Shown here: in pieces, positions 8,868 through 28,325 of the stretch | How the letters are laid out: every line of letters starts with the position of its first letter | Numbering within the stretch: position 1 is the first letter of the stretch | Assembly (NCBI GenBank): GCA_030649345.1 | Contig: JAUSKK010000038.1 | Span: forward strand, 1 to 32,000 | Source of the DNA: Candidatus Iainarchaeum sp. | Lineage (GTDB): Archaea > Iainarchaeota > Iainarchaeia > Iainarchaeales > 0-14-0-20-34-12 | Direction of reading: 5' to 3' | Length of the DNA: 32,000 nt | Made by a program: the position numbers and the translations under genes | The notes under the pieces: generated by a model | Told to the model about the DNA's origin: nothing | What the model saw: the letters and a program-made list of their open reading frames with translations, nothing else | Database searches by the model: none

Positions 8868-9563
8868 TTAATAACTGAATGGATTGTGAATGATTCCTTC
8901 TCTGCGAAGTAAGTTCATTAGTGTTTTAGGTAATTGTTTTCGCACTGTTTGCCCGCAAGGATAATATTTGAACATTGCTTCAAAAAATTGCTGAATTCTA
9001 GGTACTTGATATCCTAAGCTATCTAATGTTTCAGCCCACCATTTCCAGTCTTCTTTGAATGCAGTGCGTATGCTTTCAGGTGATTTCCAGTCTAGTTCTG
9101 GGTGTTTTTTAGCTAGTTTAAAGTCAATTAAAGTTGGTTTAAACTGGCTGTCAATTACAATATTTCGATCGTGTGGATGCCCATGGCTTATTCTTAGTGC
9201 GTGTGCTTTCCCTAAACTATTGGTTATTAGAGTGGCAATGCTGGCTCTTATTCTTTTGTTAGGGTGTTTTTTGATTAATTCTTTTAATTCTTGTAACATC
9301 CAGCCTTCTCGTTTGAATACTGCAATTTCTCCTGTATGCAGGATGGGCACTTCAACTCGTACTCTTGCTTTTGCAAGTTTTTGAATAATTTCCAATTCTT
9401 TTCTTGAAACTCCTTGTTTTACTAAAACTCGTTTAAGTTTTCCGCCTATTTTTGGGTGAAATTCAATTAAACGAGTTCTTGTTCCAACTTGTTTTCCAGT
9501 ATGCGTGGTTACTTGAGGACGAACATAAGGTCTTCGTTCAATGGGTCTTTTTTGCATATGCAT
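8868..9563 (-). CDS. small atypical protein kinase-like protein (Bud32/RIO/Kdo-kinase-like)
   Basis: The 231-aa ORF has ISHGHPHDRNIVID, which resembles the HGDLxxxN catalytic loop, followed by LIDFKLA, which resembles DFG. An alternative ATG at 9557 has better AGGAG spacing. Confidence 0.5.
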   Translation of the reverse strand: MHMQKRPIERRPYVRPQVTTHTGKQVGTRTRLIEFHPKIGGKLKRVLVKQGVSRKELEIIQKLAKARVRVEVPILHTGEIAVFKREGWMLQELKELIKKHPNKRIRASIATLITNSLGKAHALRISHGHPHDRNIVIDSQFKPTLIDFKLAKKHPELDWKSPESIRTAFKEDWKWWAETLDSLGYQVPRIQQFFEAMFKYYPCGQTVRKQLPKTLMNLLRREGIIHNPFSY

Positions 9564-9598
9564 TCTCCTTTAAATTAATTACAGTATTTGATTTATTT

Positions 9599-10414
9599 AT
9601 GCGTATTGGTTTATTGGGCACAGGGAACATGGGCGGAGCAATCTTGAAATCGATTGTTGAATCCAATCAATTTAACAAAAAAGACTTGTTTGCTTTTGAT
9701 GTCAATTCTGAAAAATTAAACAAATTTTGTTCTGATTTAAAAATTCAGGCTTGTACTTCTGCGATTGATTTAGTGAAAAATTCAGATGTAATTATTTTGG
9801 CTTGCAAGCCCCAGCAAATGCCTGTTGTTTGTTCTGAAATTTCTGCTGTTATTTCTTCGAATCATTTAGTGATTTCCATTGCTGCAGGAATTCCTTTAAA
9901 GTTTTTTGAAGAAAAATTAAATAAAGCAAGAATTATTCGAGTGATGCCGAATATGCCTTTATTGGTACGTGCAGGAATGACTGTTTTTAGTTTAGGCAAA
10001 AATACAAATTCGGAAGACAAAAAATTAATTGAAGAAATTTTTAGTTTAACTGGAACTGTCTTAGAAGTTTCCGAAGAAAAAATTGGAATTGCCAGTATTG
10101 CATTTTCGTGCATGCCTGGCTGGACTGCGTATTTTATGGATGCATTTATTCAAGCTTGTAAAAAACAAGGTTTAAGTGAAGAACAAGCTCAAATCATGAT
10201 TGCTCAAGCTTTTTTAGGTTCCGGAAAATATGTTTTGGAAACCAAAACCAAGCCAGCAGATTTAGTCAAACAAGTGGCTTCTCCAGGCGGAATTACGCAA
10301 CAAGGCTTGGAAGTATTTGATTCAGTTCAACTACAGAAAATCTTAGAACAAGCAGTCGAACGCGGAATGAAAAGAACCCAAGAATTAGCCCAAGGTGTTG
10401 AACAAACAAAATGA
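9599..10414 (+). CDS. proC: pyrroline-5-carboxylate reductase
   Basis: The start was trimmed to ATG 9599; the ORF-track start at 9452 is TTG and overlaps the upstream gene. MRIGLLGTGNMGGAI is a Rossmann motif and SPGGITQQGL is the P5CR signature. A TTTAAATTAATT box lies about 25 nt upstream. Confidence 0.85.
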   Translation: MRIGLLGTGNMGGAILKSIVESNQFNKKDLFAFDVNSEKLNKFCSDLKIQACTSAIDLVKNSDVIILACKPQQMPVVCSEISAVISSNHLVISIAAGIPLKFFEEKLNKARIIRVMPNMPLLVRAGMTVFSLGKNTNSEDKKLIEEIFSLTGTVLEVSEEKIGIASIAFSCMPGWTAYFMDAFIQACKKQGLSEEQAQIMIAQAFLGSGKYVLETKTKPADLVKQVASPGGITQQGLEVFDSVQLQKILEQAVERGMKRTQELAQGVEQTK

Positions 10415-10460
10415 TATTTTGAATTGTGTTGTTCGTATTGAGTAGTATTCAACACCTTGG
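10390..10460 (+). repeat. about 70-bp inverted-repeat element, copy A
   Basis: A perfect 13-bp inverted repeat is formed by CCAAGGTGTTGAA (10390-10402) and TTCAACACCTTGG (10448-10460). The termini CAAGGTGYTGAACAAAYAA and TAGTATTCAACAYCTTGG are shared with the copies at 28146-28284. The left arm lies inside the last 8 codons of proC. Confidence 0.65.
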
Positions 10461-10475
10461 CGGAACAAGCAAAAT

Positions 10476-10483
10476 AATTTATT
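10476..10483 (+). promoter_or_regulatory. putative TATA box (AATTTATT) of paralog P1
   Basis: The box centre is about 25 nt upstream of ATG 10505, which implies a leaderless or near-leaderless mRNA. Confidence 0.4.
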
Positions 10484-10504
10484 CTCTTAAACACTAATTT
10501 TATA

Positions 10505-11392
10505 ATGCCTGGAAAAGGAAAGTCTCAGTCTGCTGTTACGCGGTCAAAAATTAGCTTGGCTAGAAAAGCTCTTCTTGCAAAGAATCGACCTGCTTTGATT
10601 CGCAGAAATCGTCAATTGGCTGTCGAAAGATTGCGTGCACTTTTAGCCAATCATGAATCCATTAATTCAAGATATATTCGAGATCGTCATCCTCGTTTAT
10701 ATGATTTAATCCGTAGGGCTTTTGGTTCTCATGAACAAGCTGTAGTAAAAGGTTTGAAAATGGATTATGATCAAGTTCGTGTTTCTGTTGATGAAAGATC
10801 TAAACGTGTGCGTGCTGGCTGGAAAAAACAATGGAGTGAAGCAGACTTAAAAAAACGCAGAAAAATAATGCATGCTTTAAGACGCAGAAGACGAATTGTC
10901 AATCGTTTGCAAAATATTTCTTTTATTTCAAAACTTTTAGAATTGCGTTTACAAGGCTGGCATCATTCCCTGGTTGCAAAACGCTTGAATATTGCTGAAA
11001 AAACTTGGCAAATTTGGTCTAGTCGAGTTATTCATACAGTTTCTCCAGAATTGCGAGAACACTGGAAAGCCATTGCTCGAGCAATTCAATACGAAAAAAT
11101 TACAAGCATTTTAAATGGAAGCCCAGCTGTTTCATGGAATGAAGCTCAAGCTATTGCTGCAAAATTTAAAAAAACTGAATTGAAAAAATTTTCAGAAAAT
11201 AGAAGAAAAATTTACAGATTGGCATTGACTGGAAAATCAATACCTGAACTTGCTGGTGAATTAAATGTTTCTGAAAAAGAAGCTGTGGCTTTGGTAAATA
11301 TGCTGTCCTTTGAGCAATCTGAAAAAATCAAAAAAAAGTGGTTAAGGCAGTCCTTGGAACGTGTTCGAGCTGAACGGACAGTTCAACCATAA
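10505..11392 (+). CDS. basic double-HTH paralog P1
   Basis: This 295-aa protein is Lys/Arg-rich. Its helical module is RHPRLYDLIRRAFGSHEQAVVKGLKMDY. HTH-1 is LRLQGWHHSLVAKRLNIAEKT and HTH-2 is LALTGKSIPELAGELNVSEKEAVALV. Confidence 0.8.
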   Translation: MPGKGKSQSAVTRSKISLARKALLAKNRPALIRRNRQLAVERLRALLANHESINSRYIRDRHPRLYDLIRRAFGSHEQAVVKGLKMDYDQVRVSVDERSKRVRAGWKKQWSEADLKKRRKIMHALRRRRRIVNRLQNISFISKLLELRLQGWHHSLVAKRLNIAEKTWQIWSSRVIHTVSPELREHWKAIARAIQYEKITSILNGSPAVSWNEAQAIAAKFKKTELKKFSENRRKIYRLALTGKSIPELAGELNVSEKEAVALVNMLSFEQSEKIKKKWLRQSLERVRAERTVQP

Positions 11393-11393
11393 C

Positions 11394-11403
11394 AATTTAT
11401 TTT
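11394..11403 (+). promoter_or_regulatory. putative TATA box (AATTTATTTT) of paralog P2
   Basis: The box centre is about 25 nt upstream of ATG 11423. The decamer is identical to the one at 13231-13240. Confidence 0.4.
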
Positions 11404-11422
11404 ACTTGAACATTATTCTAAT

Positions 11423-12331
11423 ATGCCTATTCGTGGAAAACTCAATCGGCCTCCTTTGTCTGCTGAAGCCAGAGCTAGAATTGGTTTAAAACAAAAAAGG
11501 TATTGGAACAAAAATAGGTCAGCTTTAACTCGAAAAAGAAGAATAAAAGCAGTAACTGCTTTGAACGAATTGCAGGCTAAAGGTTTACCTTTAAATCCAA
11601 GATTTTTGCTTGCTCATTTTCCAAAAGTTTACAATTTGGCTCGCGGTGCCTTTAAAACTTATCAGAAAGCCATCGAAAAAGGTTTGGGTTTAAAGTATGC
11701 TGAAGTTAGTTTTCAAGGAGAAAAAAAATCAAAAGTTTCCAGTGAAGCTTCCAAACGTCAATGGGCAGAACGTGCTCTTCCTGAAAAAAGAAAAAGAATC
11801 CGTTTATGGACAGCCGCACGCGAAATAACTTTACGCAAACGAACCATTGCTCGCAGAGCCAAAGTATTAAGTTATCGTTTGCGTGGATTTTCAACGGATT
11901 GGCTTGCAGAAAAGTTTGGAGTAGAACGAGTTACAATTGTGCGTGATATTTTATTTTTAAGAAATACTTTAAAACCTGAAGTACAAACTGCGTTAGCTCA
12001 ATTAAATGATTTTTTTATCCGAAATCCAAACGCAAAAAAAGCAAACGGAACTTTTATTGTTTCACCTGAAACAGCCAGCAGTACTGGCATTGAATTTCGC
12101 AGAAAAGAATTGCAAAAATTAAAATTAATTCCAAAAGAAATAGCTAAACTGGCTTTGACCGGAAAAACAAATCCAGAAATTGCTCAAGTCTTAAATTTGA
12201 CTGAAAAAGAAGTTGCTCAAATGATTGGTTGGCTTCCGGAAAAACAATTTAAAAAAATTAGTTTACTTAGATTAAGAACTGCATTTACTGCTTGGAAAGC
12301 CAAACAAACAGGAGCTGTAAAAAATGCCTGA
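11423..12331 (+). CDS. basic double-HTH paralog P2
   Basis: This 302-aa protein has a NUMOD3-like PPLSAEARARIGLKQKRYW motif and the module FPKVYNLARGAFKTYQKAIEKGLGLKY. HTH-1 is YRLRGFSTDWLAEKFGVERVTIVRDI and HTH-2 is LALTGKTNPEIAQVLNLTEKEVAQMI. Confidence 0.8.
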   Translation: MPIRGKLNRPPLSAEARARIGLKQKRYWNKNRSALTRKRRIKAVTALNELQAKGLPLNPRFLLAHFPKVYNLARGAFKTYQKAIEKGLGLKYAEVSFQGEKKSKVSSEASKRQWAERALPEKRKRIRLWTAAREITLRKRTIARRAKVLSYRLRGFSTDWLAEKFGVERVTIVRDILFLRNTLKPEVQTALAQLNDFFIRNPNAKKANGTFIVSPETASSTGIEFRRKELQKLKLIPKEIAKLALTGKTNPEIAQVLNLTEKEVAQMIGWLPEKQFKKISLLRLRTAFTAWKAKQTGAVKNA

Positions 12332-13232
12332 ATTGAGAACCGCTTTTGTGATTTCTAAAACTAAACGAAAAGGCCATACTATTTCTCCTGAAACTAAAGA
12401 AAAAATCCGGCAAAAACGTTTGGCTTATTTTAAGCGTGCTGGGACACGTTTGCGTGCAGCCAAGAAAGCTCGCTTGTTAGCTGAATTTAAAGAAATTCAA
12501 AAACATGGTGAACCCATTAATGTGGCGCAAATGCATAAAAAACACAGGGCTGTTTATCAGCGAGCAGTTGCTTTTTCTGGTTCGTATGAAAAATTTGTAG
12601 AACAAGTTTTAGGCTTAAAATATTCGGATGTACAAATTTCTCAAGATACTATGATTGCGCGAAACAGAGAGCAGGCTCAAAAACAAGTGGCTGCCCGAAC
12701 TCCTGGAGAACAAATTAAAAAACGCAGAGAATTAATTCGCGGAAGATATTGGACTCAACAAAAAATACATATTCGAGTTTTGCGTTCTGTTCTTGCTTTG
12801 CGTTTACAAGGGCATTCTTTGGCCAGCATGGGTGATCGTTTAGGTTACAAATTGAAAACTGTTTCTCAATTCTTAACTGAACTATATCCTTTGGTCCCCC
12901 AAGAAGTTCACGACCGTTTAATTGAAATCCGAACTGCTTTTCTGCGAGTAAATAATGTACGCAAACTGGGTAAAGGTCCAGTATTGGCTGGCCCTGAAGC
13001 TGCTCAAATTGCCAGTGCTTTTGGAAGCGATTTAATCAAAACGTTTAATGAAAATTATGCTAAAGTAAAAGACTTAAGCTTGCAAGGCATTTGGCCGGAT
13101 GAAATTTCCAGACAAACAGGACTGCCTCAAGAGACTGTTGTACGCTTGACTAAAATGTTTCCAGAAAAGGTTCACAAGCGTTCTGTAAAAGCTAAATTTG
13201 CCAAATTTGTACGCCCTTTGAAAAGAAAGTAA
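12324..13232 (+). CDS. basic double-HTH paralog P3
   Basis: This 302-aa protein starts 8 nt inside the P2 reading frame (ATGCCTGA overlap). It has a NUMOD3-like KGHTISPETKEKIRQKRLAYF motif and the module FSGSYEKFVEQVLGLKY. HTH-1 is LRLQGHSLASMGDRLGYKLKTVSQFL and HTH-2 is LSLQGIWPDEISRQTGLPQETVVRL. Confidence 0.8.
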   Translation: MPELRTAFVISKTKRKGHTISPETKEKIRQKRLAYFKRAGTRLRAAKKARLLAEFKEIQKHGEPINVAQMHKKHRAVYQRAVAFSGSYEKFVEQVLGLKYSDVQISQDTMIARNREQAQKQVAARTPGEQIKKRRELIRGRYWTQQKIHIRVLRSVLALRLQGHSLASMGDRLGYKLKTVSQFLTELYPLVPQEVHDRLIEIRTAFLRVNNVRKLGKGPVLAGPEAAQIASAFGSDLIKTFNENYAKVKDLSLQGIWPDEISRQTGLPQETVVRLTKMFPEKVHKRSVKAKFAKFVRPLKRK

Positions 13233-13240
13233 TTTATTTT
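13231..13240 (+). promoter_or_regulatory. putative TATA box (AATTTATTTT) of paralog P4
   Basis: The box centre is about 25 nt upstream of ATG 13260. Confidence 0.4.
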
Positions 13241-13259
13241 CAAATTCTCTATTTATTAT

Positions 13260-14096
13260 ATGCAGCCCAAACTAAGCAGAGCTAATTTAGTTAAACCACC
13301 GGTTACTCGAAAGTCTCAAAATCGCAGGCCTAAGCTAATGGAGCGCTTGAAAGCTTTACATGGAAAAATTCCATTAAATCCTACTGCCATTATGAAAAGT
13401 CATCCAGGTTTGTATCGTTTATTGTGTGCAGAATTTGGAACCTATGGTAATGCTGTAGAATCTGCTTTAGGTATTCCTTATGAAAAAGTTCGTTTAAATA
13501 AACAAGAAATTGAACGAAGACAAAAAGATGCCGGTAACAGAAAGCGTGCCAGAATGTCGGATAAAGAAAAAAGCGTGCAGATTTATGATTTAATTCGAAA
13601 CAGAAGATTGGCTATGCGCAGGCATGTAATTGGCCAGCAAGCCAAAGTTTTAAGTTTGCGCTTGCAAGGATATCCTGTGCGAGTGATCCAAGAATTTTTA
13701 GGAGTGCAAAAATTAGCTGTCACAAAACGCGGCGGAGAATTGCGAAAAATTTTACCCCAAGCACTTGTGGAACGCTTAAAACAAATAGAATTGGCCAGAC
13801 GTTCAGTTGAAGAAAAAGATAAGCTGGAAGGATCGCTTGTTTTTTCTAAACCGGATGCTGAAAAAATTGCTGGCAATTTTCAAAAAACTGAATGGAAAAA
13901 ATTCAATAGTGTATTAAAACAAATTTATGAGAAAAGATTGACTGGAAAAACAAACAGTGAAATTGCTGTTGAATTAAATATTCCGGAAAAAAATATTGTT
14001 TCATTTACCCGATTGCTTTCAGTTACCCAATTCAGAGAAATTCGCATACTTGAACTTAAACAAGTCAAAGAACGGGTGTGGCGTAAAGGGAAATAG
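13260..14096 (+). CDS. basic double-HTH paralog P4
   Basis: This 278-aa protein has the module HPGLYRLLCAEFGTYGNAVESALGIPY. HTH-1 is LRLQGYPVRVIQEFLGVQKLAVTKR and HTH-2 is RLTGKTNSEIAVELNIPEKNIVSF. It has no clear N-terminal NUMOD3-like motif. Confidence 0.8.
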   Translation: MQPKLSRANLVKPPVTRKSQNRRPKLMERLKALHGKIPLNPTAIMKSHPGLYRLLCAEFGTYGNAVESALGIPYEKVRLNKQEIERRQKDAGNRKRARMSDKEKSVQIYDLIRNRRLAMRRHVIGQQAKVLSLRLQGYPVRVIQEFLGVQKLAVTKRGGELRKILPQALVERLKQIELARRSVEEKDKLEGSLVFSKPDAEKIAGNFQKTEWKKFNSVLKQIYEKRLTGKTNSEIAVELNIPEKNIVSFTRLLSVTQFREIRILELKQVKERVWRKGK

Positions 14097-14127
14097 TTTA
14101 ATACTGGTTTAGAATACCTTTCTATGT

Positions 14128-15048
14128 ATGCTGGAATTACGCAAACCATTGGTTATAGAAAAACGTGCTCGCAAAGGAACTCCTTTAAGTGAAGAAGCCA
14201 AACGAAAAATTAGTGCAGCGCGAAAAAGATGGTTGGCTGAAAATTCAGGGCGTTTAAGAAAAGAATCCCGAGCTCGAGTTGTAAAAGAATTGCAAGCTTT
14301 AAGAACACGCAATGAAGCCATTAATTACGAATACATTCGAAAACGATATCCTAAATTAGGTAGATCTGCAAGGCATGCTTTTGGAACTTATGAAAAAGCC
14401 ATTACCGAAGGCTTGGGATTATCATACGATCAAGTAAAAGTTTCTGAAGAAAAACGCGTTCAGCGCGTTCAAAAAGGTTCTGCAAAATATTGGGAAAAAT
14501 TTGATACTCCAGGTTCCAGAAGACGAAGAACCCATGCATGGATTTCCAGCGGATATTTAGCTAGTAAAAAAACCCAATTTCGAAGAATGGCTGAAATTTT
14601 AAGTCTGCGCTTGCAAGGATTTCAAACTCGAACAATTGCTCAACAACTGAAAGTTCATCCAAATGAAGTTCATCGCAGAATTAATCAAATTCGTGCTGTT
14701 GCAGTTCCTGAATTAGCTGAACAATTATTATTGATTCAACGGAGACTCAAAAATCAACAACGTTTACCGCAAATTGATGGAGCACAAATTCTTTCTCGCG
14801 ATTCCGCCAATCAATTTGCGCGAGAATTTCAAAAAACTCAATTGAAAAAGTTTAATGAAGATCGAAAGCAAGCAGGAAAATTGGCTTTGCAAGGAAAAAC
14901 AAATTTAGAAATTGGCATTGCTTTAGGTTTGCCGTCCGAAGAAGTTCAAATTTATTTAAAATCTTTGCCAATTCAAATACTTGAAAAAATTCGAATTTTA
15001 AAACTAAGGCAAGCTCTGATGAGAACAAAAGCAGTTCGAGGCCAATAA
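14128..15048 (+). CDS. basic double-HTH paralog P5
   Basis: This 306-aa protein has a NUMOD3-like RKGTPLSEEAKRKISAARKRW motif and the module YPKLGRSARHAFGTYEKAITEGLGLSY. HTH-1 is LRLQGFQTRTIAQQLKVHPNEVHRRI and HTH-2 is LALQGKTNLEIGIALGLPSEEVQIYL. Confidence 0.8.
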   Translation: MLELRKPLVIEKRARKGTPLSEEAKRKISAARKRWLAENSGRLRKESRARVVKELQALRTRNEAINYEYIRKRYPKLGRSARHAFGTYEKAITEGLGLSYDQVKVSEEKRVQRVQKGSAKYWEKFDTPGSRRRRTHAWISSGYLASKKTQFRRMAEILSLRLQGFQTRTIAQQLKVHPNEVHRRINQIRAVAVPELAEQLLLIQRRLKNQQRLPQIDGAQILSRDSANQFAREFQKTQLKKFNEDRKQAGKLALQGKTNLEIGIALGLPSEEVQIYLKSLPIQILEKIRILKLRQALMRTKAVRGQ

Positions 15049-16191
15049 ATGCCGAATTTTGCTGCAGTTCAAAAAAGAAAAGGGGTGCGTCCTTCTTTAA
15101 GTGCGCGGAAAAAATTACGTGAAGCAAAATTAAGATATTATGAACAAAATCGTACGCGAATTCGACAGCAAACTCGAAAGAATTTGGTTTCTGGATTTCG
15201 TTCATTAATTCAGGCAAAAGTTCCATTGAATTCAACAAATATTAGTCAAAATCATGCTGCTTTGTATGTTAAAGCCAGAAGATATTCTGGAACATATCAA
15301 AGATTTGTAGAAGAAGTTCTAGGGTTGAAATACGAGGCCATTCAAATTTCTAAAGAAAAACAAGGACAACGCAGAGAACAGCATCGCGTAAAAGTTGGAA
15401 AAAATTTGAAAAAAGAATTTCGAAAACTTTTGGCTGGAGATAATTCTAAACTAATTATGCATGTATTGAATCCGGCATATATGCGGGATCATTACAGAAA
15501 TTTGTATCAAGCTGCGTTAAGATATTCTGGAACGTACCAAAAATTTATTGAACAAGAGCTTGGCTTAAAGTACTCAGAGGTTTTATTGTCTCCGGAAGAA
15601 GCTAAACGAAGAATCTCTCAAGGCGGAAAAAATCGCTGGGCTAATGTTTCTTCGGATGAAAAACGTATATCTCAACGTACACTAAATCGCAAGCGTAGAT
15701 TTTCGCTGAAGAAAAAATACAGAAACAATCTTGCTCTTGCAGTGAGTTATCGTTTGCAAGGGCATAGTACAAATCGCATATCGCGGCGTTTAGGCAAAAA
15801 AGATGAAACCATTCGAAGATATTTGCTGGAAGCTAAAAAATATTTAGAACCTTCCGTCATTGAACAATTGGATGACATTCAATTCGAACTTCGAAATTCT
15901 TCTGTAGCCAGTGCAATTTCTTCTGAAAAAGCACGAACAATTGCTGTTCAAGTACGCAAAAAAATGCAGCAAGAATTAAATCAACAAATTCGTGCTGTTG
16001 GTGAGTTAGGTTTGCAAGGATTATTCCCTGAAAAAATTGCTGAACGTATGAATCTTCCCTTTGATGAGGTTAAAACTTTGCTGGGTCTGCAGTCGGAAAG
16101 TATGCATAAACGCATTTTAAGAGCTTGTTTTACTTTAGTTAAAGCTCGTGTTCAAGCTCAAAGACAATCAATTTTGCCTGCAACTACATAG
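15049..16191 (+). CDS. basic double-HTH paralog P6 (with duplicated helical module)
   Basis: This 380-aa protein has its ATG directly abutting the P5 stop (TAAATG). It has a NUMOD3-like KGVRPSLSARKKLREAKLRYY motif. Two copies of the RYSGTYQ[RK]F[VI]E..LGLKY module lie exactly 80 aa apart. HTH-1 is YRLQGHSTNRISRRLGKKDETIRRYL and HTH-2 is LGLQGLFPEKIAERMNLPFDEVKTLL. Confidence 0.8.
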   Translation: MPNFAAVQKRKGVRPSLSARKKLREAKLRYYEQNRTRIRQQTRKNLVSGFRSLIQAKVPLNSTNISQNHAALYVKARRYSGTYQRFVEEVLGLKYEAIQISKEKQGQRREQHRVKVGKNLKKEFRKLLAGDNSKLIMHVLNPAYMRDHYRNLYQAALRYSGTYQKFIEQELGLKYSEVLLSPEEAKRRISQGGKNRWANVSSDEKRISQRTLNRKRRFSLKKKYRNNLALAVSYRLQGHSTNRISRRLGKKDETIRRYLLEAKKYLEPSVIEQLDDIQFELRNSSVASAISSEKARTIAVQVRKKMQQELNQQIRAVGELGLQGLFPEKIAERMNLPFDEVKTLLGLQSESMHKRILRACFTLVKARVQAQRQSILPATT

Positions 16192-16244
16192 CCTATGCAT
16201 TAAATATTTTTGGTTAACTAATTAATTAGATTTTAGGTAATTTC

Positions 16245-17486
16245 ATGTCTTTGAAAGCAAATTTTATTCAAGCTAAAAAAGCAAGCCAAATTTTAGCTCA
16301 AGCTAGCACAAAACAAAAAAACTTGGTTTTAAAAATTTTAGCTCAAGAACTCAAAAAACAAACAAAAGAAATTTTGAAAGCCAACCAACAAGATTTACTT
16401 GCTGGAAAAAAAATTGGACTGAATGAAGCTTTTTTAGATCGACTTGAATTAAACAAAAATCGAATTAATGGAATCATTGAATCTGTGCAGCAAGTTCAAA
16501 AATTATCTGATCCAGTTAATCAAGTTTTGGAAAAAAGAATTTTATACAATGGCTTAAAATTGAAAAAAGTTTCTGTTCCCTTTGGAGTGATTGGAGTAAT
16601 TTATGAATCTAGGCCGAATGTTACAATTGATGTTGCCATTTTGTGTTTGAAGTCAGGTAATGCTTGCTTATTGAAAGGCGGGCCGGAAGCAAACTATTCC
16701 AATCAAGCTTTAACCAAAATTATTCAAACTGCTTTACGTAAAGCAAAATTGCCTGTGCCTGCAGTTCAGTCTTTGAATCCTGAAAAGAAAACTGTTGCAG
16801 AATTACTGCAAGCAAAACAATTTGTGGATTTAATTATTCCAAGAGGCGGGCCTGGCTTAATTAAATTTGTGGAAGAAAATTCTAAAATTCCTTTTTTGGC
16901 TGCAGGTGCAGGAATTTGTCATATATTTGTAGATGATTCTGCAGATTTAAAGAATGCTGTTGAAATTGTATTCAATGCCAAATGTCAAAGGCCATCAGTA
17001 TGCAATGCTATTGAATGTGTAATTGTGCATGAAAAAATTGCTGGCAAATTTTTGCCTTTAATGGAACAAAAATTATTGGAAAAAACAACTGAATTGCTTG
17101 CAGATAAAAAATCTTTAAAATTTTTGAAAACAGGGGCCCTTGCTCAAGCAAAAGATTTTGATACTGAATTTTTGGATTACAAAATGGCAGTCAAAACAGT
17201 TCAAGATTATCAAGAAGCCATTGAGTTCATTAACCAACATGGCACCAAGCATTCGGAAAGTATTTTGTCCAAAAATAAAAAACATATTCAAGCATTTTTA
17301 CGGCAAGTAGATTCTGCGGCAGTGTATGCTAATTCCAGTACTCGTTTTACGGATGGTTTTGAATTTGGCTTGGGTGCAGAAATTGGAATTTCTACTTCTA
17401 AGTTTCATGCCCGGGGTCCAATGGCTTTGAAAGAATTAACTACGTACAAATATGTGATTGAAGGAAAAGGGCAAATTCGAAATTGA
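16245..17486 (+). CDS. proA: gamma-glutamyl phosphate reductase
   Basis: The 413-aa ORF has an aldehyde-dehydrogenase-type fold, with the YESRPNVT motif and the catalytic-Cys context RPSVCNAIECVIVH. The length is typical of ProA. Confidence 0.9.
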   Translation: MSLKANFIQAKKASQILAQASTKQKNLVLKILAQELKKQTKEILKANQQDLLAGKKIGLNEAFLDRLELNKNRINGIIESVQQVQKLSDPVNQVLEKRILYNGLKLKKVSVPFGVIGVIYESRPNVTIDVAILCLKSGNACLLKGGPEANYSNQALTKIIQTALRKAKLPVPAVQSLNPEKKTVAELLQAKQFVDLIIPRGGPGLIKFVEENSKIPFLAAGAGICHIFVDDSADLKNAVEIVFNAKCQRPSVCNAIECVIVHEKIAGKFLPLMEQKLLEKTTELLADKKSLKFLKTGALAQAKDFDTEFLDYKMAVKTVQDYQEAIEFINQHGTKHSESILSKNKKHIQAFLRQVDSAAVYANSSTRFTDGFEFGLGAEIGISTSKFHARGPMALKELTTYKYVIEGKGQIRN

Positions 17487-17492
17487 TTCTAA

Positions 17493-17987
17493 ATGCCGGC
17501 ACGTGTTTCCAAAGTCTATGTTTTCTGGGAACCATACTTAATGATGAAAGTCCGTGATTTACTTTTGTTGCAAAGAACACCGCGTGAAATTGCACAAGCT
17601 TTAAAGCGTTCCAATTCTCATTTGACTGAAATTGGAATTACTGGAATGATCGGGCGAGTATTTGGCAGAACTCGAGAATTATCTAACGGCCAAATTAATA
17701 AAGCGTACGATCGTTGGTTTTTGTTTTATAAAGATCAAGCAGCACGAAAAAAAATTTTAGCCCAACGCGGTCGTGCAGGCCAAAAAGTCAGAGCACAAAA
17801 ATATCCCCAAAAAGAACTAGACGCAATGTTTAAACCTTTTTTTAGTTTAGGTCCAAAAGCTTTGTGGACTCGCTTGAATGCAAATCCTGAGCAAAGAAGA
17901 CGTTTTTTAGAAGAACGAAATGCTGCGATTTCTAAAGCCAAGCAAAGAAAAAAGCTTGGTAAGAAAACAGCGTTCCGCAAACCTTAA
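17493..17987 (+). CDS. short divergent member of the basic HTH paralog family (P7)
   Basis: This 164-aa protein starts 6 nt after the proA stop. Like P1, P2, P3 and P6 it begins Met-Pro. It has an HTH-like LLLLQRTPREIAQALKRSNSHLTEI segment and a C-terminal NUMOD3-like PEQRRRFLEERNAAISKAKQRKK motif. Confidence 0.6.
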   Translation: MPARVSKVYVFWEPYLMMKVRDLLLLQRTPREIAQALKRSNSHLTEIGITGMIGRVFGRTRELSNGQINKAYDRWFLFYKDQAARKKILAQRGRAGQKVRAQKYPQKELDAMFKPFFSLGPKALWTRLNANPEQRRRFLEERNAAISKAKQRKKLGKKTAFRKP

Positions 17988-18015
17988 AAAGTTCAAATTG
18001 TATTTTAACCTAAGT

Positions 18016-19119
18016 ATGCTAAGATCAAGAAAAGCTATTCATCCATCTACTCAGAGAGCTGTTCAAAATAGATTAATTGCTGGATGGACAGATAAACAAG
18101 TTAGGGCTGAAGGTCATTCAGTTAGCACAGTAGATCGAACATTAAAAACTTTGACTCCCAAAGAAAGAGAAACTCGTACTTTGAATATGTTGTTACGCAA
18201 GCATGGTTCTCCTTTGTCTGTGGATGCAGCTAGGAAAAAATTATTGGCCAGTGTAGATAAGCCTGTTATTGAACGTGCAAAAGAATTGGGTGTTGAACCG
18301 CAAAGCTTGGCTTGGTATTTAAGATATCTGCCGGAAAAATTTCGTGCATCCAATCAAGAAAGAGTTATTCGTTTATTGAAAGCCAGAAGAAAAGCCGGAA
18401 AGCCAATTTCTTTAAAAGCTTTGGAAGCAGATAGTCCTGCATTGTATCGTGCAGCCAGACGTGCTTTTGGTTCTTATCGAAAAGCAGTGGACGCTGCAGG
18501 CTATACTTATGAAACTGTTTCCAGAAAAGGTACCACCTCTGCTAATTTGAAGAATTATTATTCCGGACCGCAAGAAAATCGCAGAAGAAAAGAAAGTGCA
18601 ATGCGAATGCGGGAAACAGTTACACGAAATAATTTGAGACTTGTTTCTCGAGTGCTTGAATTAAGACTGCAAGGTTATGCCAAAGGATTTATTCAAAAAA
18701 GAATCCGGCAAAATAAGTCTTCGGTTCAAAGGCATTTAAGGTTTCTTTACCGGAATGCTTCGCCTGAATTGAACGCAAGACTGCAGAAAATTACAGCTGA
18801 TTTAGAACAAGCTCATGTAGCAAAACTTTCCAATGGTGCTACTATTTCTGAATCCGAAGCTAAAATAATAGTTAAACAATTTCAAGTGCATTACAAAAAT
18901 TATTTGAATCAATTAAAAAGTCAAGTATTGGATTTGCAAATGAAAGGCAAATCTTTAGAGCAAATTGCCAAAGAATTGAATGCAGAACTTTTTGATGTGA
19001 CTTTGGTTCGCGGCAGGTTTTCTAGAAAAGAACAATTGGCTGTTTTAAAAGCAGCTAATGAAAGAGCGCGGCAAAATCCCAGGCCTTTAATTCAGACTGT
19101 TGTAAGCCCTGCTGCTTAA
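18016..19119 (+). CDS. basic HTH paralog P8 (with extra N-terminal HTH)
   Basis: This is a 367-aa protein from ATG 18016. An upstream in-frame ATG at 17920 would overlap P7 by 68 nt. The extra N-terminal HTH is IAGWTDKQVRAEGHSVSTVDRTLKTL and the module is SPALYRAARRAFGSYRKAVDAAGYTYE. HTH-1 is LRLQGYAKGFIQKRIRQNKSSVQRHL and HTH-2 is LQMKGKSLEQIAKELNAELFDVTLV. Confidence 0.75.
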   Translation: MLRSRKAIHPSTQRAVQNRLIAGWTDKQVRAEGHSVSTVDRTLKTLTPKERETRTLNMLLRKHGSPLSVDAARKKLLASVDKPVIERAKELGVEPQSLAWYLRYLPEKFRASNQERVIRLLKARRKAGKPISLKALEADSPALYRAARRAFGSYRKAVDAAGYTYETVSRKGTTSANLKNYYSGPQENRRRKESAMRMRETVTRNNLRLVSRVLELRLQGYAKGFIQKRIRQNKSSVQRHLRFLYRNASPELNARLQKITADLEQAHVAKLSNGATISESEAKIIVKQFQVHYKNYLNQLKSQVLDLQMKGKSLEQIAKELNAELFDVTLVRGRFSRKEQLAVLKAANERARQNPRPLIQTVVSPAA

Positions 19120-19144
19120 AAATTAATTTGAACTATTTTCTAAT

Positions 19145-19891
19145 ATGGATTTTTTTGCCTTAGTTTTAATTTTTTTTGTTTCAATTTTTGCTTCTTTTAT
19201 TAGTTCCATGGTGGGCAGCGGCGGTTTGATTACTATTCCTTTTTTGATTTTTTTAGGTTTGCCGGCTCCTACCGCCATTGCTTCGCATCGTGTTGGTTCT
19301 CTAGGCTTGCAGTTGGGTTCGCTTTCTCGTTTTTGGAATGAGAATAAAATTAACTGGAAATATATTTTACCGTTTACAATTATTGATGTGGTTAGTGCTT
19401 TTGTGGGCGCCCATTTATTGGTTTCAGCAGATTCCAATTTGTTGTCGAAATCTTTGGGTTTTATTTTATTGTTGTTATTGCCTTTGAGTTTTTTTAAAAA
19501 AGATTTTGGAACAGTTTCCAAAAATGTTTCCAATCAACGAAAATTTTTAGGAGTTGTTTGTTATTTTTTGGCTGGAATCTGGGGCGGTTTTTTTGGAGGA
19601 GGCGCAGGTACTTTGGTGTATGCGATTTATGTTTCTTTTTTTGGTTTTACTTTAATTGAAGCCATTGCCACAGATAAAATCCCAGGCTTTCTTTCAGGTT
19701 TACTGGCTGTAGTATTGTTTTCAGCCTATGGTTTGATTGATTATTCTGTAGGTTTTACCATGTTTTTTGCCATGATTATTGGAAGTTTTTTGGGCGCGCA
19801 TATGGCTTTACAGAAAGGAAATGTTTGGCTGAAAGCCTTATTTGGCTTGATTGTTTTGATTTTAGCCTTAAAGCTGATATTTTTTAACTGA
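19145..19891 (+). CDS. TauE/SafE family anion exporter (membrane protein)
   Basis: This 248-aa polytopic membrane protein has two homologous halves with glycine-rich motifs (MVGSGGLITIP and GGFFGGGAGT), as in the TauE/SafE (DUF81) family. The antisense ORF 19123..19533 is rejected. Confidence 0.7.
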   Translation: MDFFALVLIFFVSIFASFISSMVGSGGLITIPFLIFLGLPAPTAIASHRVGSLGLQLGSLSRFWNENKINWKYILPFTIIDVVSAFVGAHLLVSADSNLLSKSLGFILLLLLPLSFFKKDFGTVSKNVSNQRKFLGVVCYFLAGIWGGFFGGGAGTLVYAIYVSFFGFTLIEAIATDKIPGFLSGLLAVVLFSAYGLIDYSVGFTMFFAMIIGSFLGAHMALQKGNVWLKALFGLIVLILALKLIFFN

Positions 19892-19914
19892 TTGCTTCTT
19901 CATTTTTTAATCAT

Positions 19915-21033
19915 ATGATTCGAAACGAATTATTTAAATCAATTCAGCGGGTGGTTGTCAAAATTGGCACCAGCAGTATTTCGAATGACCAAGGAATTAA
20001 TTTAGTTTTTTTGACTTCTTTAGCCAATCAAGTTAAAGAATTGCAGTCCAAAGGAGTTCAAGTCATTATTGTTTCTTCGGGTGCTATTGGTTCGGGCGCA
20101 AAAGTTTTGGGCTTAAAAGCTCCCATTCGTGTGATTGAATTACAGCAAGTAAGTGCTGCAGTAGGTCAGCCTAGATTAATGCAAGCCTATGAAAATGTTT
20201 TTTCTGGTTTGGATTTAAAAGTTGCCCAAATTTTGCTGACTTATGATGTGTTTGAAAATCGAAGAAAATATTTAAATTTACGAAATGCATTGAATGAATT
20301 ATTGAAACTAAACGTGGTTCCCATTATTAACGAAAACGATGTTGTGGCTGTAGATGAAATTGGCCCAACTTTTACGGACAATGACAAACTCAGTGCTTTG
20401 GTTGCTGCGAAATTAAATGCTCAATTGTTGGTGAATTTAACCAGTACGGAAGGAGTGTATTCTCAAAATCCAAATCTTTCCAAAAATAAAAATTTTGAAG
20501 TTATAAAAGTGGTTGACAAAATTACTCCTGAACTGGAAAAAATTGCAGGCAAACCATCCATGCATGGCACTGGCGGAATGTATTCTAAAGTTCAAGCAGC
20601 CAAAATTTGCATGAAGGCCGGAATTTTTTTAGTAATTGCCAGTTCCAAGCAGCCCAATGTTTTAAATCGAATTGTTTCCGGTGAAGAATTGGGCACATTA
20701 TTTTTGCCGAAAGAAATTTTATCCAATAAACAACGATGGATTGCGTTTGGTCAGCCGAAAGGAATTTTGTTAGTGGATAATGGAGCTATGCTGGCAGTTC
20801 AAAAAGACAAAAGCTTATTGGCCATTGGTGTGCGGGAAATTATTGGTTCGTTTGAAAAAAACGAAATTGTTTCTTTGGTTTGCTCTGGAAAAGAATTTGC
20901 CCGAGGTTTAACTAATTTTTCTTCATCTGAATTAAAAAAAATCAAAGGATTGAATTCAGATCAAGCCGCAATGCAATTAGGAAAAAAGGTTAAATCTGTG
21001 GTTTTAGCCGAAAATCTTATTAAAATGAATTAA
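19915..21033 (+). CDS. proB: glutamate 5-kinase (with C-terminal PUA domain)
   Basis: The 372-aa ORF has the amino-acid-kinase motifs VVKIGTSSI, IIVSSGAIG and INENDVV. A roughly 90-aa PUA-like domain forms the C-terminus. Confidence 0.9.
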   Translation: MIRNELFKSIQRVVVKIGTSSISNDQGINLVFLTSLANQVKELQSKGVQVIIVSSGAIGSGAKVLGLKAPIRVIELQQVSAAVGQPRLMQAYENVFSGLDLKVAQILLTYDVFENRRKYLNLRNALNELLKLNVVPIINENDVVAVDEIGPTFTDNDKLSALVAAKLNAQLLVNLTSTEGVYSQNPNLSKNKNFEVIKVVDKITPELEKIAGKPSMHGTGGMYSKVQAAKICMKAGIFLVIASSKQPNVLNRIVSGEELGTLFLPKEILSNKQRWIAFGQPKGILLVDNGAMLAVQKDKSLLAIGVREIIGSFEKNEIVSLVCSGKEFARGLTNFSSSELKKIKGLNSDQAAMQLGKKVKSVVLAENLIKMN

Positions 21034-21046
21034 GTACTGTATTTTT

Positions 21047-22525
21047 ATGTCTGAAAAAGTAAATCCAAAAACTGAAAAGATTACCTTTAATATTGACAAA
21101 GAAAAAAACTTTAGTGACTGGTTTACTGAAATTATTAAAACAGCTGAACTGGCGGATATTCGATACAATGTAAAAGGTTTTTTGGTTTTCCAGCCTTGGT
21201 CTGTTTTATCCATGGAATCCATTTACTTTTTTTTAGAACGAGTACTCCAAAAAAAAGGACACAAGCCTTATTGGTATCCTGCCGTGATTCCAGAGAAAAA
21301 TTTTTATTTAGAACAAGAACATGTGCAAGGTTTTACTCCAGAAGTATTCTGGGTTACCGAACATGGAGCTGGAGAAAAATTAGAAGAAAAATTAGCTTTA
21401 CGTCCAACCAGTGAAACTGCTTTTTATCAAATGTTTTCAATCTGGATTCGTTCCTATAATGATTTGCCGTTTAAGACTTATCAAAGAGCGCAAGTTTGGA
21501 GATATGAAACCAAAGCCACAAGGCCTTTTTTGAGAGCAAGAGAATTTCATTGGATTGAGACTCATTGTGCTTTTGAAACCGAAGAAGATGCCAGAGCTCA
21601 AGTTCAAGAAGATATGGAAACTACAGAAGAAGTATTGCACACTATTTTAGGAGTTCCATTTATTTTTTTCAAACGACCTCAATGGGATAAATTTGCAGGA
21701 GCTGTAAATACTTTTGGTGCAGATACTTTAATGCCGGACGGCCGAGTTCTCCAATTGCCAAGTACTCATTTATTGGGGCAAAACTTTTCCAAGCCCTTTA
21801 ATGTAAAATTTACGGATTCCGAAGGTCAAGAAAAGTTTACGTTTTTGACTTGCTATGGTCCTGCGGTTGGAAGAATTTTTGCAGCCGTTTGTGCAGTTCA
21901 CGGAGACAACAAAGGATTAAGATTTCCTTGGGCGATTGCTCCAGTTCAAATTGTAATTGTTCCCATTGGAATGAATAAAGATAAAAATGTTTTAACCAAA
22001 GCGCATACATTGAAAGAAAAATTACAAAATGCATTTTATCGGGTTGAAGTAGATGTTTCTGAAAAAATGCCGGGTGAAAAATTTTATTTTTGGGAAATGA
22101 AAGGAGTTCCTGTGCGTTTAGAATTAGGTCCTAAAGAAATACTGGAAGGAAAGTTAACTGTTTTCAGACGTGACACGAATTCAAAGACTCAAATTTTGGA
22201 AAAAGATTTGCTTTCATTTATTGAAAAAACTGGAAAAGAAATTACTGAAAATTTGAAAACTCAAGCAGACCAAAAATTTAAAGATGTTTTGGTTTCCGTT
22301 AAAACCAAAGCAGAAATTGAGCCAGTAATTGTTGCCGGAAAGATTGCACGTACTCCTTTTTGTTCAACCAATATGGAAGGAAATGCCTGCGCTGAATTGA
22401 TTGAAAAAGAAATTCATGCCCGAGTTCGAGGTACAAGAATTGATGTTCCGCAAACTGTTTCCGGTAATTGTGTGGTGTGCAATAAGCCTGCAAAAGAAAC
22501 AGTGTATATTGCCCGCGAATACTGA
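21047..22525 (+). CDS. proS: prolyl-tRNA synthetase, archaeal/eukaryotic type
   Basis: The 492-aa ORF has a class II core (LRPTSET, FLRAREFHWIE, YGPAVGRI) and no bacterial insertion or editing domain. The C-terminal Zn-like domain (CVVCNKPA) ends in a Tyr (IAREY), as in archaeal-type ProRS. Confidence 0.9.
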   Translation: MSEKVNPKTEKITFNIDKEKNFSDWFTEIIKTAELADIRYNVKGFLVFQPWSVLSMESIYFFLERVLQKKGHKPYWYPAVIPEKNFYLEQEHVQGFTPEVFWVTEHGAGEKLEEKLALRPTSETAFYQMFSIWIRSYNDLPFKTYQRAQVWRYETKATRPFLRAREFHWIETHCAFETEEDARAQVQEDMETTEEVLHTILGVPFIFFKRPQWDKFAGAVNTFGADTLMPDGRVLQLPSTHLLGQNFSKPFNVKFTDSEGQEKFTFLTCYGPAVGRIFAAVCAVHGDNKGLRFPWAIAPVQIVIVPIGMNKDKNVLTKAHTLKEKLQNAFYRVEVDVSEKMPGEKFYFWEMKGVPVRLELGPKEILEGKLTVFRRDTNSKTQILEKDLLSFIEKTGKEITENLKTQADQKFKDVLVSVKTKAEIEPVIVAGKIARTPFCSTNMEGNACAELIEKEIHARVRGTRIDVPQTVSGNCVVCNKPAKETVYIAREY

Positions 22526-22539
22526 TTGTTTGAATTAAA

Positions 22540-23223
22540 CTATTTAGGTCGGTTTCTCATTCGATTAAATCGTCCAGCAATTTTTCCAAACTTTTTTAAT
22601 TGTTGTCTGCTGGCTTGAACCAGTTTTAGGTGGATATCTTTTTTTGGGTGTATTTTTTTTCTATCGGGATTGCGAAATACTTGTAGCCATAAACTTTCTC
22701 GGGCAGTTCCATGTAAATTATAAATTGAAAAAGGAGATTGTGTAGATCCTACAAAGTCAAGTTTATGCCATGCACCTTGAGTGTATGTCCATCCTGGTTT
22801 TTGGCTGTGATTGTTAAAACTAAATGCCCCGCTAAATATGCGGGCTTTTCCTACTGTTTGAAAATATTGTTTTAGTTTTGTTATGCCCAATCCTGTTTCA
22901 CTGTATTCATCTAAAAATAATATTCTATTTTTTGGGTTTTGAAATTCAGCATATGTTTTAGGTCGTTTTTCTCGAATAGCTTGTTCTAAAGCTTCTATAT
23001 TTTCAGAATCGTGAGTAATGTTTCGGGTTTTTCCCAATGCAATTATTTTTGGCATTTCTTCTATTGGATAACCACTGGCTTTCCAAGCATTTGCAATCAA
23101 ATGTCTTAGAGGAACAGCAGCTGTTCCTTTTAGTGCAATTACATTAATTTTGTTTTCCTGAATCCAATTAATTAATCGAATGGATGTTAAAATAATTTCT
23201 CGTTCAGAAGCAGATCTCGGCAT
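22540..23223 (-). CDS. hypothetical protein, phosphoribosyltransferase-like motif
   Basis: The 227-aa ORF has RILFLDEYSETGLGI, which resembles the acidic PRPP-binding loop of type I PRTases (hydrophobic run, two acidic residues, then TG). The C-terminal tail is basic. It is the last gene of a tightly packed four-gene unit. Confidence 0.35.
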   Translation of the reverse strand: MPRSASEREIILTSIRLINWIQENKINVIALKGTAAVPLRHLIANAWKASGYPIEEMPKIIALGKTRNITHDSENIEALEQAIREKRPKTYAEFQNPKNRILFLDEYSETGLGITKLKQYFQTVGKARIFSGAFSFNNHSQKPGWTYTQGAWHKLDFVGSTQSPFSIYNLHGTARESLWLQVFRNPDRKKIHPKKDIHLKLVQASRQQLKKFGKIAGRFNRMRNRPK

Positions 23224-23226
23224 AAG

Positions 23227-23907
23227 TTATTTTTGTTTTCTTAAATAGTTTTCAATTTCTTCTTCGCTGACTGCGCATCCTGCGTATTTGACTGCATACA
23301 ATGCTGCTCGTGCAGCCTTGATGGTGTTGGTAATGGTTTCATTCAGTAAACCTTCTTCGTAGGCTAAAGCAATTAATTCAGTTGAACGAATAATAATGGG
23401 CTTGGGAATAATTTGATTTAATTCATTTAAAATAGTAGAGTTTACTTGGATATTGATTCCTTGTCTTCGTTGAATTAATTCACGTAATTCATTGGGTGTT
23501 TCAATTAACATTCTGGTAGTTTTTTCATCCATGCATAAAATTCTGGAATTGACTTGCTGCATTAATGCTAAAGATTCTGCTTCTCCTTTGTGCAAGATTT
23601 GAATAAATTTTCCATTGCTGTGAAATAATTTTCCACATAAAGAAACCATTCGTTCTTCCAGTGCTTTGGATTCAGAATTCATTTGAGCTACTTGAATCCA
23701 TTTTTCATTTAATCCTTTTTGAATTCTTTCTGAACTTAACTGAAATCGTTTAATGGTGCTGGGAGTTTCAATGCTTTCTTCGGCAACTCCTTGGCTCATT
23801 ATAAATTGAATTCCTAATTTTTTGTTGAGTGCACGAAACACATCAAATAAGCAGGTTTCGCTTAAAGAAATTAAAGCGCTTGAATCCAATACAATAATAG
23901 TGTTCAT
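23227..23907 (-). CDS. PIN-domain protein
   Basis: The 226-aa ORF has IIVLDSSALISL (first acidic residue), KGEAESLAL and CMDEKTTR. These fit the PIN acidic triad spacing, in a COG2405-like arrangement. A C-terminal helical extension follows. Confidence 0.5.
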   Translation of the reverse strand: MNTIIVLDSSALISLSETCLFDVFRALNKKLGIQFIMSQGVAEESIETPSTIKRFQLSSERIQKGLNEKWIQVAQMNSESKALEERMVSLCGKLFHSNGKFIQILHKGEAESLALMQQVNSRILCMDEKTTRMLIETPNELRELIQRRQGINIQVNSTILNELNQIIPKPIIIRSTELIALAYEEGLLNETITNTIKAARAALYAVKYAGCAVSEEEIENYLRKQK

Positions 23908-23912
23908 GTGCT

Positions 23913-28145: not shown

Positions 28146-28284
28146 CAAGGTGCTGAACAAATAAATGGCCTATTTGACTTCTGTTTACTCCATTGGCTAG
28201 TATTCAACATCTTGGCCAAGGTGTTGAACAAATAACGTTAATTGGACTTCTTTTTACTCCATTGGCTAGTATTCAACATCTTGG
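28146..28284 (+). repeat. two tandem copies (B: 28146-28215; C: 28216-28284) of the about 70-bp inverted-repeat element
   Basis: The two units are about 90% identical by eye, for example GACTTCTGTTTACTCCATTGGCTAGTATTCAACATCTTGG against GACTTCTTTTTACTCCATTGGCTAGTATTCAACATCTTGG. Each is bounded by CAAGGTGYTGAA and TTCAACATCTTGG. The junction forms a 26-bp near-palindrome at 28203-28228. Confidence 0.75.
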
Positions 28285-28325
28285 TAAAGCTTTTTATTTT
28301 GCAAATTAATAATACATACGATTGT

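Follow-up and report, generated by a model that had tools for sequence, protein, structure and literature searches.

What would seven related genes for extremely basic proteins do within an archaeal block of proline-biosynthesis genes, and are they, as some of their motifs hint, offshoots of homing endonucleases? The question is raised by the first 32,000 nt (the window) of contig JAUSKK010000038.1 of Candidatus Iainarchaeum sp. (assembly GCA_030649345.1), where a preliminary description, made from the letters alone, had singled out the gene at 14128–15048, P5, as exemplar of a family that fuses homing-endonuclease DNA-recognition modules to two helix-turn-helix (HTH) domains. Our analysis indicates that P5 and its six paralogues are probably non-catalytic modular DNA-binding proteins with an extended target site and diverged recognition helices, and that they likely act as regulators or architectural factors. 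The window holds exactly seven paralogues, all on the + strand and 25–34% identical to one another (BLASTP E 1e-8 to 1e-44):

10505–11392, + strand: P1, 295 aa, 34% identical to P5 (BLASTP E 7e-44).
11423–12331, + strand: P2, 302 aa, matching P5 with BLASTP E 1.6e-39.
12324–13232, + strand: P3, 302 aa, whose first 8 nt are shared with the end of P2.
13260–14096, + strand: P4, 278 aa, without the N-terminal NUMOD3-like motif.
14128–15048, + strand: P5, the exemplar, an ATG-to-stop open reading frame (ORF) of 306 aa, pI 11.1, net charge +40.
15049–16191, + strand: P6, 380 aa, with a duplicated HNH_repeat unit, beginning right after the P5 stop codon.
17920–19119, + strand: P8, 399 aa, the most divergent, set apart from P1–P6 by proA and bearing an N-terminal extension.

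The tandem expansion is real, and the peptide strings and coordinates on which the preliminary description relied are correct, with RKGTPLSEEAKRKISAARKRW at residues 15–35 and ARHAFGTYEKAITEGLGLSY at residues 81–100 of P5 and AFGSYRKAVDAAGYTYE in the ORF at 17920–19119 (P8). A six-frame scan of the window with family profiles recovered only these seven genes, with no fragments and no further HNH_repeat gene. In P5 the modules and the linker between them are distributed as follows:

14173–14232, + strand: NUMOD3-like unit KGTPLSEEAKRKISAARKRW (residues 16–35), from a partial Pfam NUMOD3 match and a non-circular unit model.
14266–14421, + strand: HNH_repeat unit (residues 47–98), from hhalign and a score of 45.8 bits against a profile made only of units from outside the window.
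14422–14574, + strand: basic helical linker (residues 99–149), with helices 107–124 and 128–162 in the AlphaFold2 (AF2) model.
14575–14703, + strand: HTH1 (residues 150–192), of LuxR/GerE/sigma-70 region 4 type, from GerE, Sigma70_r4_2 and phrog_3855.
14854–14967, + strand: HTH2 (residues 243–280), of LuxR/GerE type, from PDB matches to NarL and DesR, a second GerE stretch and Foldseek.

The HTH half of the family is the easiest to place. P5 by itself scored 23.4 bits against Pfam GerE (PF00196), just under the cut-off of 23.5, and 21.4 bits against Sigma70_r4_2, whereas the family consensus cleared the cut-offs of GerE (39.4 bits versus 23.5, in two stretches, the second at consensus residues 241–268), HTH_38 and Sigma70_r4_2. 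Moreover, the family profile matched NarL (E 0.0083) and DesR in the PDB, HTH1 matched phrog_3855 ('HTH DNA binding protein', E 7.6e-07), and the best local Foldseek matches of the P5 model were GerE, VqmA, DegU and LiaR, with probabilities up to 0.94 and none significant. These profile comparisons confirm the prediction of two LuxR/GerE/sigma-r4-type HTH domains per protein, as had been proposed at the outset. The top PDB match, 8vd6 ('CAP repeat', E 3e-14), was discarded as having no biological meaning, being a repeat protein designed de novo. Identity as a sigma factor found no support, since only region-4-like HTH matches and no region 2 were found and TIGR02937 scored 19.3 bits against a cut-off of 42.9. 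Both HTHs resemble the LuxR/GerE and sigma-70 region 4 domains of NarL, DesR, GerE and VqmA in profile or structure but, unlike response regulators or sigma factors, the proteins lack a receiver, a ligand-binding domain and sigma region 2, carry two HTHs per chain and belong to an archaeal host. Further matches to the HTH portion of the family profile were two metagenomic proteins, P0091 (567 aa) and P0136 (1557 aa), in which between 8 and more than 14 HTH units stand in tandem.

How the paralogues differ from one another bears on what the HTHs might do. The best conserved segment of the whole family is LSLRLQG in HTH1, with R161, L162 and G164 invariant, and mean pairwise identity is 32–33% in the HTH scaffolds, on a par with the HNH_repeat segment (32–33%), and 23% in the linker at 99–149, but only 16–19% in the recognition helices, the lowest of all segments. 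Because the scaffolds are conserved while both recognition helices are the most diverged parts, the paralogues probably read different target sequences.

We then asked what the N-terminal half is. Directly scored against Pfam, the HNH_repeat family (PF18780) gave values under its gathering cut-off of 26 bits throughout, the best being 17.4 bits (E 0.0059) for P8 and 15.1 bits for the family consensus, with P1–P6 unreported. The window units deviate from the family consensus, with FGTY..AV...LGL in place of FGSW..A..AAG, which accounts for their falling below the cut-off. A profile of the seven paralogues, however, gave 2042 matches at E up to 1e-3 among 1.84 billion representative proteins, and the non-window matches listed were nearly all reached through profile positions ~38–105, in 4–13 tandem stretches (two HTH-array proteins excepted). 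Membership in PF18780 was found in 89 of the 90 top non-window proteins scanned (best E 8.6e-52); this sample was drawn from the best matches and is skewed to long repeat arrays. Conversely, a profile built from 960 units of non-window proteins, seeded on a Pfam-delimited unit, scored all seven paralogues at 28–56 bits (P1 38.0, P2 28.6, P5 45.8 and P8 56.1 bits), with two units in P6, and when the N-terminal alignment, made from window proteins only, was compared by hhalign with 89 outside units, the match had a probability of 99.15% and E 3.8e-19 and took in all 51 columns. It was the window profile that had fetched the outside proteins in the first place, so they may represent the window-like end of the family, although Pfam certifies them independently. 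Since retrieval of PF18780 members, the outside-only scores and hhalign agree, profile evidence confirms that every paralogue carries a genuine HNH_repeat unit, and P6 two, so that a call first made for P5 and P8 extends to all seven. The two units of P6 correspond to domain matches at residues 47–89 and 140–168, within a protein whose internal duplication spans residues 112–197. The likeness to other PF18780 proteins is that residues 47–98 of P5 and the counterpart in each paralogue form a full-length unit; the difference is that the proteins recovered consist of 4–13 tandem units and nothing else, and those of the window have one unit (two in P6) followed by two HTHs. No significant structural relative of the HNH_repeat or the N-terminal half was found in the PDB or BFVD, and weak structural matches of this half to Rop were set aside as helical-hairpin noise.

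The NUMOD3-like unit (PF07460) at the very N-terminus is the fainter of the two 'endonuclease' motifs. Pfam NUMOD3 was matched by P5, at 14.8 bits for the whole protein and 17.6 bits (E 0.0036) for a 45-aa segment against a cut-off of 20.4, and by neither the other paralogues nor a 164-aa ORF that the preliminary description had counted as 'P7'. The P5 match takes in positions 1–17 of the 37-position model, which covers two tandem units. An HNH+NUMOD3 endonuclease from a metagenome contig (L081), with two tandem units, scored 33.9 bits over positions 1–37; a single unit would therefore top out at ~17 bits, which is the score of P5. To avoid circularity, a model was built from five NUMOD3 units not found through P5 and compared with 1600 composition-matched shuffles. 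The unit sought has the pattern G-x-x-h-S-x-E-x-K-x-K-I-S-x-A-x-K. At the aligned N-terminal site, P5 scored 7.2 bits (1 of 1600 shuffles as high), P3 6.8 bits (2 of 1600) and P1 4.6 bits (3 of 1600), and P2, P4, P6, P8 and 'P7' were at chance level. A nine-unit model, partly circular, agreed with this picture. The motif had been assigned to P2, P3, P5, P6 and 'P7'; it stands above chance in P5 and P3, is also carried by P1, which had not been listed, and was over-extended to the rest, in an account whose module calls were otherwise largely right. Overall, profile significance is clear for HNH_repeat and weak for NUMOD3. Judged by positional homology, the ancestor of the family seems to have had the motif, which has since decayed in some copies. 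In P6, the second HNH_repeat unit is followed by SPEEAKRRISQGGK (P5 counterpart, VSEEKRVQRVQKG), a marginal second NUMOD3-like motif at 4.0 bits (6 of 1600 shuffles as high).

Units near-identical to that of P5 occur in real endonucleases. The L081 ORF (779–1252 of contig Ga0116144_10090565), which surfaced through exact-peptide seeding of a contig search, encodes a 157-aa HNH endonuclease (HNH_3 32.1 bits besides NUMOD3), reads KGIPCSEEAKRKISNTKK where P5 reads KGTPLSEEAKRKISAARK and has in one of its NUMOD3 units the exact 9-mer SEEAKRKIS of P5. L084, an endonuclease-like protein of a T4-like phage, contains GRKHSSESKQKISAARKTWLKEN, with 26.2 bits for Pfam NUMOD3 and a DUF559/Vsr-like nuclease region. 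A comparison of residues 11–45 of P5 with 2.3 Gb of phage DNA ranked annotated homing or HNH endonucleases of T4-like phages highest, at E of at least 1 for so short a query. In I-TevI and I-HmuI, NUMOD3 is an alpha-helix that lies in the minor groove (PMC2853131, PMC3664794). In the AF2 model of P5, a long basic helix spans residues 22–60 and is capped at its N-terminus by Ser21.

Two features near the 3' end of the family touch on its limits. The 164-aa ORF at 17493–17987 ('P7') is very basic (pI 11.3) and has an HTH-like segment, TPREIAQALKRS..., and was rejected as a member on a family-profile score of −1.1 and a NUMOD3 score at chance level; it had no family match in Pfam, PHROGs, NCBIfam or PADLOC and only a faint resemblance to HTH2 of P2 (BLASTP E 0.15). 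Its last 68 nt also belong to P8 in the longest reading of that gene, an overlap that disappears if P8 starts at 18016, giving 367 aa, the form of the database entry P0006. The longest reading of P8 has ~90 additional N-terminal residues (17920–18180), with no significant family match, that include an HTH-like segment, AVQNRLIAGWTDKQVRAEGHSVSTVDRTLKTL, which would make three HTHs.

Is a catalytic domain hidden between the modules? The AF2 models of P5 (pLDDT 86.4) and of its N-terminal half alone (82.5) contained helices only, with no strands of three or more residues, and hence none for a beta-beta-alpha-Me (HNH), GIY-YIG, PD-(D/E)xK or LAGLIDADG fold. The linkers at residues 99–149 and 193–242 are confidently predicted plain helices with no family match, and the former has no strand and no conserved catalytic residue. 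Across the family only M1, Y100, V103, R161, L162, G164, A227 and G256 are invariant, none of them D, E, H or K. None of the paralogues matched a nuclease family in Pfam, PHROGs or NCBIfam, Foldseek found no nuclease for the P5 model, and no nuclease remnant was found in any member or in any other frame of the window. As far as testable, then, the paralogues are confirmed to lack a nuclease domain, in line with what had been read from the sequence alone. All are extremely basic (pI 10.6–11.3, net charge +35 to +52), with 0–1 Cys each. A weak PADLOC match to PDLC03682 ('HEase: homing endonuclease', E 4.2e-4, 18.4 bits) at residues 143–215 of P3 (12750–12968) covers HTH1 and the following helix and is absent from the other paralogues; beyond it, PADLOC returned no known defence system.

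The family is an orphan in current databases. No homologue with the full architecture was found among the best 150 matches of the search of 1.84 billion representative proteins, where weaker full-length relatives would rank below many repeat-array matches, and a collection of 5.8 billion proteins searched with P5 or its two-HTH half, by word-indexed searches of limited sensitivity, returned only the window proteins. Scans of genome, metagenome and viral contigs gave no related locus and only the unrelated HNH+NUMOD3 endonuclease L081, through the 8-mer SEEAKRKI that it has in common with P5. The only relative, found with the N-terminal half, was a 103-aa fragment, P0162, 83% identical to P4, in which substitutions hit 4 of 55 positions in the repeat core versus 14 of 48 elsewhere (Fisher p 0.004). 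That they spare the repeat core is evidence for purifying selection on it, and the fragment itself points to another, related organism. The contig's housekeeping proteins, too, are singletons at 90% identity, which indicates that the lineage is poorly sampled. P1–P6 and P8 have the same GC and GC3 as neighbouring housekeeping genes and intact ORFs in a 35% GC genome; given this, and the depletion of substitutions in the repeat core of the P4 orthologue fragment, the genes are real and under constraint.

Assembled, these data suggest how the proteins could work. Each would string four modules into an extended chain, very basic and built only of helices: a NUMOD3-like unit, with a Ser N-cap and basic helix; one HNH_repeat unit, as a small helical bundle; and two LuxR/GerE/sigma-r4-type HTHs in succession, all linked by long Lys/Arg-rich helices. 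The modules would touch successive grooves of one long DNA site, in the way that GIY-YIG and HNH homing endonucleases use their DNA-binding half, but would not cut. With probably different sequences read by each, the paralogues could act as transcription regulators or as site-specific architectural factors; most likely they form a lineage-specific family of DNA-binding regulators and not a new kind of system. The likeness to the DNA-binding domains of I-TevI, I-BmoI and I-HmuI lies in the beads-on-a-string arrangement of small modules, NUMOD3 then HTH, with linkers, and in KGTPLSEEAKRKISAARKRW of P5, which resembles GRKHSSESKQKISAARKTWLKEN and scores like one genuine NUMOD3 unit. Unlike these enzymes, the window family has no nuclease domain, an HNH_repeat interposed, HTHs of LuxR/GerE/sigma-r4 type, no match to NUMOD1 or NUMOD4 and a NUMOD3 signal in only three of seven paralogues, and it sits in the genome of a cellular archaeon and in neither an intron nor a phage. 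Extended sites are read in archaea by small basic proteins with several HTHs in a row, such as Cbp1 (a CRISPR repeat-binding protein) and Tfx. P8 had weak NCBIfam matches to both (HTH_Cbp1, E 0.0053, 16.7 versus a cut-off of 140; tfx, E 0.0086, 16 versus 60), and both are without the N-terminal modules of the window family. No CRISPR array was found in the window.

The genes around the family set the terms on which this reading has to be weighed, and they form one tightly packed unit:

9452–22525, + strand: same-strand block of proC, P1–P6, proA, the 164-aa ORF, P8, a TauE-family gene, proB and proS.

Gaps within the block run from −68 to 90 nt, its other genes are identified by Pfam as P5CR_dimer, Aldedh, AA_kinase with PUA, tRNA-synt_2b and TauE, and the paralogues break the proC–proA–proB–proS succession at two places. 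Neighbouring genes are of archaeal type (CGI-121, GatD, diphthamide synthase, ATP-dependent DNA ligase with its N-terminal domain and RIO kinase), as are a prolyl-tRNA synthetase with the C-terminal domain ProRS-C_1 of Pfam and a DRG-like GTPase, and GC is ~35% along the whole window. ProA is ~50% identical to bacterial ProA (Bacteroidales, Clostridia), which suggests an old horizontal acquisition of the pro genes from bacteria. Relatives of proA were tried as a synteny guide and offered only ~50%-identical bacterial loci, uninformative for this lineage. Looking for signals of a mobile island turned up no tRNA, no integrase and no flanking repeats of the kind expected of an element; the DNA repeats that the block does contain fall mostly inside paralogue coding regions and largely come down to the similarity of those coding sequences.

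Upstream of the ATG of P1, P2 and P4, by ~22–33 nt, lies an A/T-rich element, TAA(N)AATTTATT (10469–10504, 11390–11422 and 13230–13259), with similar A/T-rich stretches ahead of TauE and proA and no Shine-Dalgarno sequence visible. To judge from its sequence, the element could be the TATA box of archaeal promoters whose transcripts have a short leader or none; the A/T-rich 9-mer is modestly enriched in the window (64 matches observed versus 45 expected). The longest proC ORF begins at a TTG that precedes the P5CR domain by ~50 codons, and it overlaps a convergent-looking ORF on the opposite strand, at 8868–9563, that has a weak RIO match; the real proC start is probably further downstream. ORFs of 185–470 aa without a Pfam match lie at 22540–25144, 26202–26942 and 28242–30507, and four adjacent minus-strand ORFs of ~225 aa at 22540–25144, considered as a second paralogue family, proved mutually unrelated in sequence.

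Several points weigh against regarding the family as readers of specific DNA sites. Their siting inside a block of proline-biosynthesis genes is unaccounted for, basic residues are scarce in the HTH2 recognition helices, and basic helical proteins could bind DNA non-specifically, or RNA. The direct Pfam scores of the NUMOD3 and HNH_repeat 'endonuclease' motifs are under curated cut-offs, and our literature and PDB searches gave no function and no solved structure for HNH_repeat, so that its label as DNA-binding rests on its association with endonucleases.

The main rival takes up some of the same points and sees in the paralogues non-specific, nucleoid-associated (chromatin-like) proteins that coat or bridge DNA, the copies being dosage or condition variants. 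Their pI and charge, the long extended helices of both AF2 models, seven copies within one tightly packed block and the paucity of basic residues in the HTH2 recognition helices would all suit such a role. Nonetheless, paralogues only 25–34% identical, with divergence focused in the recognition helices, present a pattern more typical of diversified specificity, and NUMOD3 and LuxR-type HTHs are classically sequence-reading modules; we consider this rival unlikely.

A lower likelihood still attaches to the view that the genes are remnants or derivatives of free-standing homing-endonuclease genes that invaded gaps of the proline block and lost the nuclease, whether they are now selfish and decaying or domesticated. 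In T4-like phages, seg and mob genes sit between conserved genes, and here too the genes occupy two separate positions between conserved pro genes; the NUMOD3-like helix with HTH is the module set of the DNA-binding halves of I-TevI and I-HmuI, the closest phage matches to the P5 motif are annotated homing or HNH endonucleases (at the E values given above), and HTH1 of P3 has its weak 'HEase' match. Against this, no nuclease remnant exists in any member or other frame of the window, and one nuclease-free architecture is common to all seven, so that any loss must predate the expansion; the ORFs are intact and conserved with a composition that matches the host, and no flanking repeats, tRNA or integrase were found. 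An HNH nuclease was present in only 1 of the 90 best non-window HNH_repeat proteins, a sample skewed to long arrays. The nuclease-free condition is thus the common state of HNH_repeat proteins and not a derived oddity, and the possible domestication put forward in the preliminary description is a conjecture drawn from Pfam names only. A bolder version, which we rate as a long shot, would have a free-standing homing-endonuclease gene keep its DNA-recognition half, lose the nuclease and multiply in gaps of the horizontally acquired proline operon, its descendants now being long-site DNA readers of the host: transcription or chromatin factors of a new archaeal kind, or 'target-site guards' that sit on homing sites and shield them from cleavage by related endonucleases.

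A role in binding RNA instead of DNA, or in association with RNA or the ribosome, would fit the extreme basicity and long helices of the proteins and the proximity of proS and other translation-related genes, but LuxR/GerE HTH, NUMOD3 and HNH_repeat all come from DNA-associated families and no RNA-binding family was matched, which makes it very improbable. That the proteins are cryptic endonucleases, whose catalytic domain escaped recognition in the linkers at 99–149 and 193–242, can be dismissed as next to impossible. Nothing speaks positively for it beyond the lack of a family assignment there, whereas the models are all-helical without beta-strands for nuclease folds, no D, E, H or K is invariant, each protein has 0–1 Cys, and neither Foldseek nor Pfam, PHROGs or NCBIfam yielded a nuclease.

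Proteins with HNH_repeat and no nuclease are already common, as is the reuse of DNA-binding domains as modules; what is new in P5 and its paralogues is the combination of known DNA-binding modules, which reveals no new type of system. If the family does consist of non-catalytic DNA-binding proteins, it would be a natural example of a NUMOD3-like helix and an HNH_repeat recombined with LuxR-type HTHs, nuclease-free and in seven divergent copies, and would offer a handle on the uncharacterised HNH_repeat domain in a single-unit, soluble-looking setting. It would also add a lineage-specific family of regulators to a poorly sampled archaeal lineage.

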